A stretch of DNA of 64,000 bases from a virus. The notes below the pieces were generated by a model. It worked only from the letters and a program-made list of their open reading frames with translations. It did not search any database and was not told the DNA's origin. The stretch is from IMG/VR virus record IMGVR_UViG_3300031418_000005, positions 182,338-246,337 of that record; one strand, given 5' to 3'. This document shows positions 34,377 through 34,536 of this stretch, piece after piece; position 1 is the stretch's first letter; the number at the start of each line of letters is the position of its first letter. The position numbers and the translations under genes are program-made.

Positions 34377-34460
34377 CTACTGCACCACCCTGCGAAAGAG
34401 AATAGCGCGCAACAATTTCAGGAAGCCTGAGTCAGGCTTTTCCACCTTCGGGTTTTTCAT
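34377..34460 (-). CDS. Small cationic amphipathic peptide B, 27 aa
   Basis: Manual translation MKNPKVEKPDSGFLKLLRAILFRRVVQ; GGAG RBS 8 nt upstream; fills the gap before the DUF1353 gene. Confidence 0.5.
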   Translation of the reverse strand: MKNPKVEKPDSGFLKLLRAILFRRVVQ

Positions 34461-34536
34461 GACGTTTTCTCCGCAACGCAAATAACAGAGCACGTCCAAC
34501 TGCACGCATCAGCGTGACGAACCAGTTGGTTTTCAT
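34432..34536 (-). CDS. Small cationic amphipathic peptide A, 34 aa
   Basis: Manual translation MKTNWFVTLMRAVGRALLFALRRKRHEKPEGGKA; ATGA overlap with the endolysin stop. Confidence 0.55.
   Translation of the reverse strand: MKTNWFVTLMRAVGRALLFALRRKRHEKPEGGKA

Follow-up and report, generated by a model that had tools for sequence, protein, structure and literature searches.

We analysed a 64,000-nucleotide stretch of viral DNA (the window), which is the final 64 kb of a 246,337-bp jumbo-phage genome assembled as a single contig, and in it the short interval between the gene of a GH108 endolysin and a DUF1353 gene. An earlier inspection of the letters alone (the sequence-only reading) had claimed that this interval of 163 nucleotides is almost fully occupied by two overlapping small open reading frames (ORFs), and had proposed that they encode accessories of lysis. 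Its statements on the letters were all borne out, and the coordinates agree with this layout: the endolysin stop codon occupies positions 34533-34535, the ATG of the DUF1353 gene lies at 34369-34367, and the gap of 163 nucleotides between them holds both frames, here called ORF1 and ORF2. All genes of the cassette are on the minus strand, in the order GH108 muramidase, ORF1, ORF2 and DUF1353 gene:

34533-35132, minus strand: endolysin, 199 amino acids, with GH108 muramidase and PG_binding_3 domains
34432-34536, minus strand: ORF1, 34 amino acids, net charge +7, phrog_25143; start codon and endolysin stop codon (TGA) overlapping as ATGA
34469-34472, minus strand: GGAG, ribosome-binding site of ORF2, inside the RRKR codons of ORF1 and 8 nucleotides before the ORF2 ATG
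34377-34460, minus strand: ORF2, 27 amino acids, net charge +5, with a 29-nucleotide overlap with ORF1 and its stop 7 nucleotides before the DUF1353 ATG
33728-34369, minus strand: DUF1353 protein, 213 amino acids, of the TtaP phospholipase A2 (PLA2) family

The DNA of this cassette is 81-82% identical to that of the Erwinia jumbo phages Stratton and phiEaH2 (Erskinevirus), and phyllosphere metagenome runs hold DNA near-identical to it.

The comparison of related sequences identifies ORF1 and ORF2 as genuine genes under purifying selection. In tblastn searches, the check that had been proposed for the two frames, both were found to be kept in related phages: ORF1 in 34 phage records, 30 of them with at least 80% of its length, which cover all SPN3US-type Seoulvirus records listed, and ORF2 in 10. 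The coupling of ORF1 to the endolysin stop, as had been proposed, is present throughout, since the endolysin stop and the ORF1 start overlap as RTGA in all 14 related loci (ATGA in 12, GTGA in two); these 14 loci amount to about six lineages, several of them near-identical. For the uncultured clade L008-L012, in which the junction letters were read by eye, the overlapping ATG is the sole possible start of ORF1. The separate ribosome-binding site claimed for ORF2 was likewise found, as GGAG at 34472-34469. In all nine Erskinevirus and Seoulvirus loci the ORF2 ATG lies exactly 73 nucleotides past the endolysin end and is preceded by GGAG or GGAA, letters that belong to the ORF1 codons for RRKR.

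The proportions of nonsynonymous and synonymous differences were compared by the Nei-Gojobori ratio (pN/pS). For ORF1, 10 of the 11 pairs gave 0.11-0.37 and the remaining one, the close pair SPAsTU/pEa29 (pEa_SNUABM_29), gave 0.62, whereas the other two frames of the same stretch gave 0.35-6.2, mostly about 1 or more, with five values undefined. The synonymous differences of ORF1 between genera are close to saturation. The 15-codon core of ORF2 gave values of 0-0.16 in its own frame, versus 0.49-4.5 elsewhere where the ratio was defined. None of the four public runs on the stretch showed an indel, and a natural variant from run X12, whose ORF1 equals the database cluster P0002, carries 10 substitutions within the two ORFs that result in two conservative amino acid changes per peptide (four in total). 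In length, the window was seen to differ from Erskinevirus only by an indel of 3 nucleotides.

The two peptides had been described as unannotated, which is correct only in part. ORF1 belongs to phrog_25143 (E-value 1.5e-26, residues 1-34 aligned to profile positions 1-34 of 35), a PHROG with no assigned function that was its sole match across Pfam, PHROGs and NCBIfam, and the records of Stratton (gp173) and phiEaH2 (G173_gp076) list it as a hypothetical protein. ORF2, which matched nothing in PHROG, Pfam or NCBIfam, is indeed without annotation in Stratton and phiEaH2, and it is annotated in SPAsTU and EC001. A profile search with ORF1 against 1.84 billion representative proteins returned just three clusters (Erskinevirus-like, Seoulvirus and the uncultured clade), indicating that ORF1 proteins do not extend beyond this lineage of phages. 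The ESM Atlas search with ORF1 yielded no usable match. Literature searches on jumbo-phage lysis, SPN3US and phiEaH2 returned no paper on the peptides or on the lysis genes of SPN3US- or Erskinevirus-type phages.

Each of the two peptides combines a predicted short hydrophobic helix containing basic residues with a basic cluster (RRKR or RR). In the AlphaFold2 model, ORF1 forms a single helix of residues 5-26, with a mean predicted local distance difference test (pLDDT) score of 74, which ends in RRKR and is followed by a variable, floppy tail. In ORF2 a polar N-terminus is followed by a conserved helix core of hydrophobic and basic residues, with RRV as its last residues. With net charges of +7 (ORF1) and +5 (ORF2) and lengths of 34 and 27 residues, both fall within the cut-off used in screening for disruptins (fewer than 80 amino acids and a net charge of at least +4; bioRxiv 10.1101/515445, like the other papers below cited from the part of its text available to us). 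Analysis of hydropathy and sequence found no transmembrane-grade segment, signal, lipobox or Cys in either peptide: the best 19-residue Kyte-Doolittle means are 1.12 for ORF1 (two charged residues) and 0.44 for ORF2 (five charged residues), below the usual transmembrane threshold of 1.6. All holins share at least one transmembrane domain (PMC12894885), which by hydropathy ORF1 and ORF2 lack, so that the term holin-like, proposed for them in the sequence-only reading, is not supported. The two features of spanins, an N-terminal transmembrane segment with a periplasmic coiled coil or a lipobox Cys, were not found in them either. The motif RA(L/I)LF followed by RR, to which the same reading had pointed, is present in both peptides of the window, but in relatives it loosens to an R-A-hydrophobic-RR pattern. 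The possibility that ORF1 and ORF2 are paralogues was rejected, as BLASTP yields no alignment between them. A complex prediction made with endolysin and ORF1 alignments returned a score of 0.00, that is, no answer, and counts neither for nor against binding.

The endolysin matches the Pfam families Glyco_hydro_108 and PG_binding_3 with E-values of 1.7e-20 and 1.3e-18, and no signal peptide or transmembrane segment was found in it. Among PDB sequences it matches 6v3z (E-value 4.5e-42) and 6v40 (E-value 6.8e-42); 6V40 is TtsA, the muramidase of typhoid-toxin secretion, and 6V3Z is Sen1395 (PMC6996933). Sequence similarity thus places the muramidase close to TtsA and Sen1395, as their near relative.

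The DUF1353 protein, in which no signal peptide was found, matches Pfam PF07087 with an E-value of 1.5e-16. To this family belongs TtaP, a 125-residue protein of the typhoid-toxin islet that was assayed as a phospholipase A2 and has a His/Asp dyad distantly resembling that of group XIV secreted PLA2s (PMC11525133). In an alignment of 22 DUF1353 sequences, His87 and Asp118 are invariant and Asp88 is nearly invariant, and Asp118 appears to equate to TtaP Asp85. The model of the phage protein has a pLDDT of 91.8. When it was compared with the PDB by Foldseek, no row reached an E-value of 0.001 or lower, and the rows of highest probability were PLA2s (E-value above 1); the top match of a VIA-wide structural search was the Tuber borchii PLA2 (4aup_B, Z-score 4.4, root-mean-square deviation 3.5 over 80 residues). 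A DUF1353 profile search of PDB sequences gave no matches. PHROGs, RefSeq and the GenBank relatives label the gene as ‘tail assembly chaperone’ or ‘tail assembly-like’, which is probably a propagated misannotation, since the family is DUF1353, that of the phospholipase TtaP. In unrelated small phages, the DUF1353 gene adjoins wall hydrolases in five of the 10 loci inspected, and in three of these five it has an Amidase_3 or Peptidase_M15_4 endolysin on one side and a Phage_holin_4_1 holin on the other. Cassettes of this endolysin-DUF1353-holin type were found by tblastn in at least nine of 62 small-phage loci, probably belonging to one clade.

The cassette is flanked by the following features:

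35187-35216, minus strand: terminator-like hairpin of 13 pairs with a T run, just 5' of the endolysin, the 5' boundary of the four-gene unit
33615-33646, no strand assigned: hairpin flanked on either side by T-rich tracts, located between the DUF1353 gene and the lipoprotein gene convergent with it
33095-33610, plus strand: lipoprotein, 171 amino acids, LSGC lipobox, phrog_9559, the convergent neighbour of the cassette

The hairpin at 33615-33646 is likely a bidirectional terminator that forms the 3' boundary of the unit; its plus-strand side comes from the hairpin scan, and the T tract on the minus strand was judged by eye. Because of their tight packing between the two terminator-like hairpins, the four genes look like one transcription unit. 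The lipoprotein gene at 33095-33610 is kept beside the cassette in seven of the 11 related loci tested.

Several further observations concern the DNA of the cassette itself. A stem of 7 bp with a 3-nucleotide loop at 34423-34439 includes the ORF1 stop and is encoded by ORF2 codons. It is kept with an altered loop in Stratton and phiEaH2, the corresponding Seoulvirus ORF2 codons differ, and no T run comes after it. A wastewater metatranscriptome (X10), the one run recorded as RNA, contains a contig of 192 nucleotides identical to positions 34380-34571, which span the end of the endolysin gene, ORF1 and ORF2. This contig is not evidence of transcription, because DNA is possible in RNA libraries and contigs show neither strand nor ends. 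In the record of Salmonella phage SPFM12 (LR535911.1, 105837-107502) the cassette is found in short scrambled and reversed blocks, with the endolysin, DUF1353 and peptide frames broken; this looks like an assembly artefact. The records of SPFM1, SPFM8 and SPFM20 give partial matches similar to that of SPFM12.

We compared the content of the slot between the muramidase and DUF1353 genes across sister phages. The SPN3US-type Seoulvirus cassette contains true homologues of ORF1 (tblastn E-values of 2e-5 to 1e-8) and ORF2, and shares with the window the ORF2 core, the stop/start overlap, the position of the ORF2 start and the flanking enzymes. It differs in that the Seoulvirus slot holds, in addition to ORF1 and ORF2, a 30-residue single-span ORF3, which the window and Erskinevirus lack, and in that an extra gene, absent from the window and Erskinevirus, lies between the DUF1353 and lipoprotein genes. 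Moreover, ORF2 has 27 residues in the window and 31-50 in Seoulvirus. The extra gene of SPN3US (3444-3959 of the extracted locus) encodes 171 amino acids and, judged by eye, a putative M15-type peptidase. A search for an ORF3-like single-span peptide elsewhere in the genome analysed here gave nothing convincing (best tblastn E-value 0.04).

In Machinavirus the slot is filled with one single-span peptide of 38-52 residues, in the L032-L034 clade with a hydrophobic peptide of 33-37 residues, and in the uncultured clade L008-L012 with a single ORF1-like peptide of 34 residues. The occupants thus fall into two classes: cationic, sub-transmembrane peptides (ORF1 and ORF2) versus near-neutral, transmembrane-grade ones, with 19-residue Kyte-Doolittle means of 1.6-2.35. 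In the sister jumbo genera the slot holds tiny peptides of membrane type or none, and the single-span peptides found there are in keeping with a role at the membrane for whatever occupies it. The N-terminus of the slot peptide of Machinavirus pEa_SNUABM_4 (2094-2243 of the extracted locus), PPxFPEVQ.., resembles that of SPN3US ORF2, and the same peptide continues into an acidic, Pro-containing and transmembrane part like that of SPN3US ORF3; the comparison was with 2577-2785 of the SPN3US locus. This mixed likeness to ORF2 and ORF3 suggests that the slot was remodelled by frame changes or fusions between genera. ORF1 from the uncultured clade has a C-terminus similar to the beginning of the ORF2 core.

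Beside the endolysin, nothing resembling a holin or spanin was found, as the sequence-only reading had stated. Elsewhere in the genome, about 45 kb from the cassette and outside the window, two adjacent genes encode a candidate spanin pair. The candidate i-spanin (genome positions 171440-171943, minus strand) is a protein of 167 amino acids with an N-terminal membrane segment of type II orientation and a helical, Pro-rich periplasmic part. The candidate o-spanin (genome positions 170960-171433), which begins 6 nucleotides after the 167-residue gene, is a lipoprotein of 157 amino acids; its lipobox is LLVGC, and Asn occupies position +2. The two are kept in 70 and 51 phage records, respectively, all annotated as hypothetical, and no named family, spanin families included, was matched by either. 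On these sequence features, the products of 170960-171943 are candidates with the architecture of a separated spanin pair, and the phage is therefore probably not spaninless.

The pairing of the two flanking enzymes has a counterpart in the TtsA-TtaP islet of Salmonella, where a GH108-type muramidase is likewise paired with a DUF1353 phospholipase A2. In vitro, release that depends on TtsA requires the addition of agents perturbing the outer membrane, such as cationic antimicrobial peptides or bile salts (PMC6996933, PMC11525133). The phage cassette differs in that two phage-encoded cationic peptides lie between the enzymes, in contrast to the external membrane-active agents described in the available text of these papers, in that its DUF1353 protein has 213 residues compared with 125 in TtaP, and in that the islet serves toxin export and not lysis. 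With a TtsA-like protein on one side and a TtaP-family protein on the other, the peptides can be recast as part of a muramidase-peptide-phospholipase unit.

Among the known lysis proteins, the disruptin gp28 of phage phiKT is a peptide of 56 residues with a net charge of +7 that is predicted to be helical; it complements lambda Rz/Rz1, and phiKT is without spanins (bioRxiv 10.1101/515445, Holt et al.). The available text of that preprint reports no homologues of gp28 beyond one close phage. Like gp28, the window peptides are small, highly cationic and predicted to be helical, have no transmembrane segment or signal and are encoded beside the endolysin. Unlike it, they have only 34 and 27 residues and come from a phage with a candidate spanin pair, and the likeness considered here is one of properties. 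On paper they resemble a disruptin or an antimicrobial peptide, but membership among the disruptins cannot be claimed for them. With holins, including the class III holin gp142 of phiKZ, they share small size, a position beside the endolysin and an expected action on the inner membrane from within, but ORF1 and ORF2 are without a transmembrane domain by hydropathy. Among published jumbo-phage lysis cassettes we found only the one of phiKZ, whose gene set is a classical one and differs from that described here; its arrangement, given in the available text as i-spanin, o-spanin, holin, regulator and endolysin (PMC12894885), has no counterpart at this locus.

Taken together, ORF1 and ORF2 are best explained as late genes of a four-gene lysis unit that extends from the TtsA-like muramidase to the TtaP-like DUF1353 gene. 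They very probably sit in a lysis cassette, and for this reason a membrane-acting lysis accessory is the best available reading of their function. The proposal that they are membrane-permeabilising lysis peptides acting with the muramidase and the putative phospholipase has in our judgement about an even chance of being right. Under this proposal, ribosomes that finish the endolysin would re-initiate at its stop codon to make ORF1, and the amount of ORF1 would therefore be tied to that of the endolysin. Both peptides would be made in the cytoplasm and would attach to the inner membrane from its anionic inner side, permeabilising it above a threshold. The permeabilised membrane would let out the two signal-less enzymes and expose phospholipid to the phospholipase, whose lysolipid products would widen the membrane damage. 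Once periplasmic, the peptides could also loosen the outer membrane.

Several results weigh against this proposal. The genome contains several small two-span membrane ORFs, any of which may be a true holin; these were taken from a crude hydropathy scan and not from a gene caller. In favour of the proposal, none of the six small membrane ORFs tested elsewhere in the genome for a known holin matched a PHROG lysis family (one is TciB-like). With the two-span ORFs and the candidate spanin pair, a classical three-step lysis set may be complete without the peptides. Because the cassette is surrounded by tail-fibre and virion genes, a role in entry or in the virion is conceivable. In the Machinavirus pEa_SNUABM_6 there is no peptide gene between the muramidase and DUF1353, and the slot is thus dispensable or replaceable. 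As stand-alone support, the structural matches of the DUF1353 model to PLA2s are weak, although they point in the same direction, and the putative PLA2 assignment therefore draws mainly on Pfam membership and the TtaP paper. The adjacency of GH108 to DUF1353 was found in 14 of 79 viral loci, all of them from jumbo relatives, and in none of 70 bacterial-genome loci, in a pattern scan that favoured one motif and missed the Salmonella TtaP loci. Finally, the peptides had been described as cationic and amphipathic; the first property holds, but the second is weaker, as their maximal hydrophobic moments of 0.49-0.70 are matched by 9-39% of composition-preserving shuffles. The term ‘amphipathic’ therefore adds little beyond ‘hydrophobic plus basic’.

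Membrane-active peptides from other systems offer a further model. In melittin, a tetrabasic cluster comes after a hydrophobic helix of about 20 residues; the peptide is co-produced with bee-venom PLA2, whose access to lipid it improves, and is secreted and processed. The type I toxin peptides of the TisB type are very short and depolarise the inner membrane, and TisB is a true transmembrane helix. A hydrophobic helix with a tetrabasic cluster encoded beside a putative PLA2 recalls melittin, but only as an analogy, since homology is not expected and the window peptides would be made in the cytoplasm. Extending the analogy, the cassette might be a holin-independent, venom-like device in which the peptides are obligatory activators of PLA2 in the style of melittin and not stand-alone pores: they would expose lipid, the cytoplasmic PLA2 would make detergent-like lysolipids, the inner membrane would dissolve from within and the muramidase would be freed, and the typhoid-toxin islet would be a domesticated remnant that has no peptides. 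We regard this version as unlikely.

Other explanations were weighed against the same data. A minor share of the probability goes to a regulatory role, in which the peptides would time or restrain the cassette, either as an antiholin-like partner of a holin encoded elsewhere or by holding the cytoplasmic PLA2 or the muramidase inactive or tethered to the membrane until lysis. The coupling to the endolysin in 14 of 14 loci fits a stoichiometric partner, the available description of the phiKZ cassette includes a dedicated lysis regulator (PMC12894885), and a cytoplasmic PLA2 would plausibly need restraint. However, sister genera keep both enzymes yet have unrelated single-span peptides or none. 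A specific enzyme-binding partner is hard to reconcile with a slot whose peptides are replaced or absent beside the same two enzymes. It is also rather doubtful that the peptides are disruptins in the strict sense, that is, outer-membrane disruptors of a spaninless phage and functional equivalents of phiKT gp28. Size and charge within the screening cut-off, the predicted helical structure without a transmembrane segment, the position adjoining the endolysin and the lack of a spanin beside it would all suit such a role, but peptides made in the cytoplasm meet the inner membrane first, and the conserved candidate spanin pair at 170960-171943 lies in the same genome. The suggestion of the sequence-only reading that a disruptin replaces spanins here is, as written, not supported. 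Improbable, too, is a role unrelated to lysis, such as superinfection exclusion, membrane-directed host takeover or a virion or assembly function, with the endolysin as an incidental neighbour. The embedding of the cassette in a tail-fibre/virion module, the ‘tail assembly chaperone’ label of the DUF1353 family in PHROGs and a prophage-like locus (L052) in which DUF1353 comes after a tail-fibre assembly gene would agree with it, but in all 14 loci with ORF1 the peptides lie between the muramidase and DUF1353, they are within the terminator-like hairpin boundaries of the unit, and DUF1353 is found inside bona fide endolysin-holin cassettes of other phages.

Two further explanations concern the reading frames themselves. 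ORF1 might be a cationic C-terminal extension of the endolysin, produced if ribosomes slip by -1 on the run of A that precedes the stop codon: the window, Erskinevirus and the uncultured clade have A AAA TGA at this place, where a -1 slip of the Lys tRNA would re-pair perfectly. The slippery run is, however, missing in all six Seoulvirus loci listed, which have TGC/TGT AAA TGA (SPN3US, EC001, SaP7 and Proteus phage 7) or TGC AAG / GGT AAG TGA (SPAsTU and pEa_SNUABM_29), and for lack of conservation of the A-run in that genus this explanation, now very improbable, was rejected. Since the RTGA overlap is universal, coupling and not slippage is the conserved feature. That neither frame is real, and that the stretch merely serves as a spacer or a regulatory RNA, is suggested by the shortness of the peptides and by the 7-bp hairpin that overlaps the ORF1 stop, but has a negligible chance of being correct given the frame-specific purifying selection with synonymous change near-saturated between genera, the conserved starts and ribosome-binding site, the 3-nucleotide indel as the sole length difference between the window and Erskinevirus, and the X12 variant without indels.

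Lysis by phages of the SPN3US and Erskinevirus type is not yet described in the literature that we found. New in the present analysis are the two-peptide variant of the Erskinevirus type, without ORF3 and the extra Seoulvirus gene, the selection statistics, the view of the slot across genera and the candidate spanin pair, with its consequences for the disruptin proposal. Both peptides are so short that they can be synthesised and assayed directly. The homology of the flanks to TtsA and TtaP leads to a testable idea about the role of TtaP in the release of typhoid toxin. If the peptides permeabilise membranes, they would represent a non-transmembrane, antimicrobial-peptide-like type of lysis protein beyond the single known disruptin. 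Under the same condition they would also link this type to a phospholipase, an enzyme class outside the textbook scheme of holin, endolysin and spanin.

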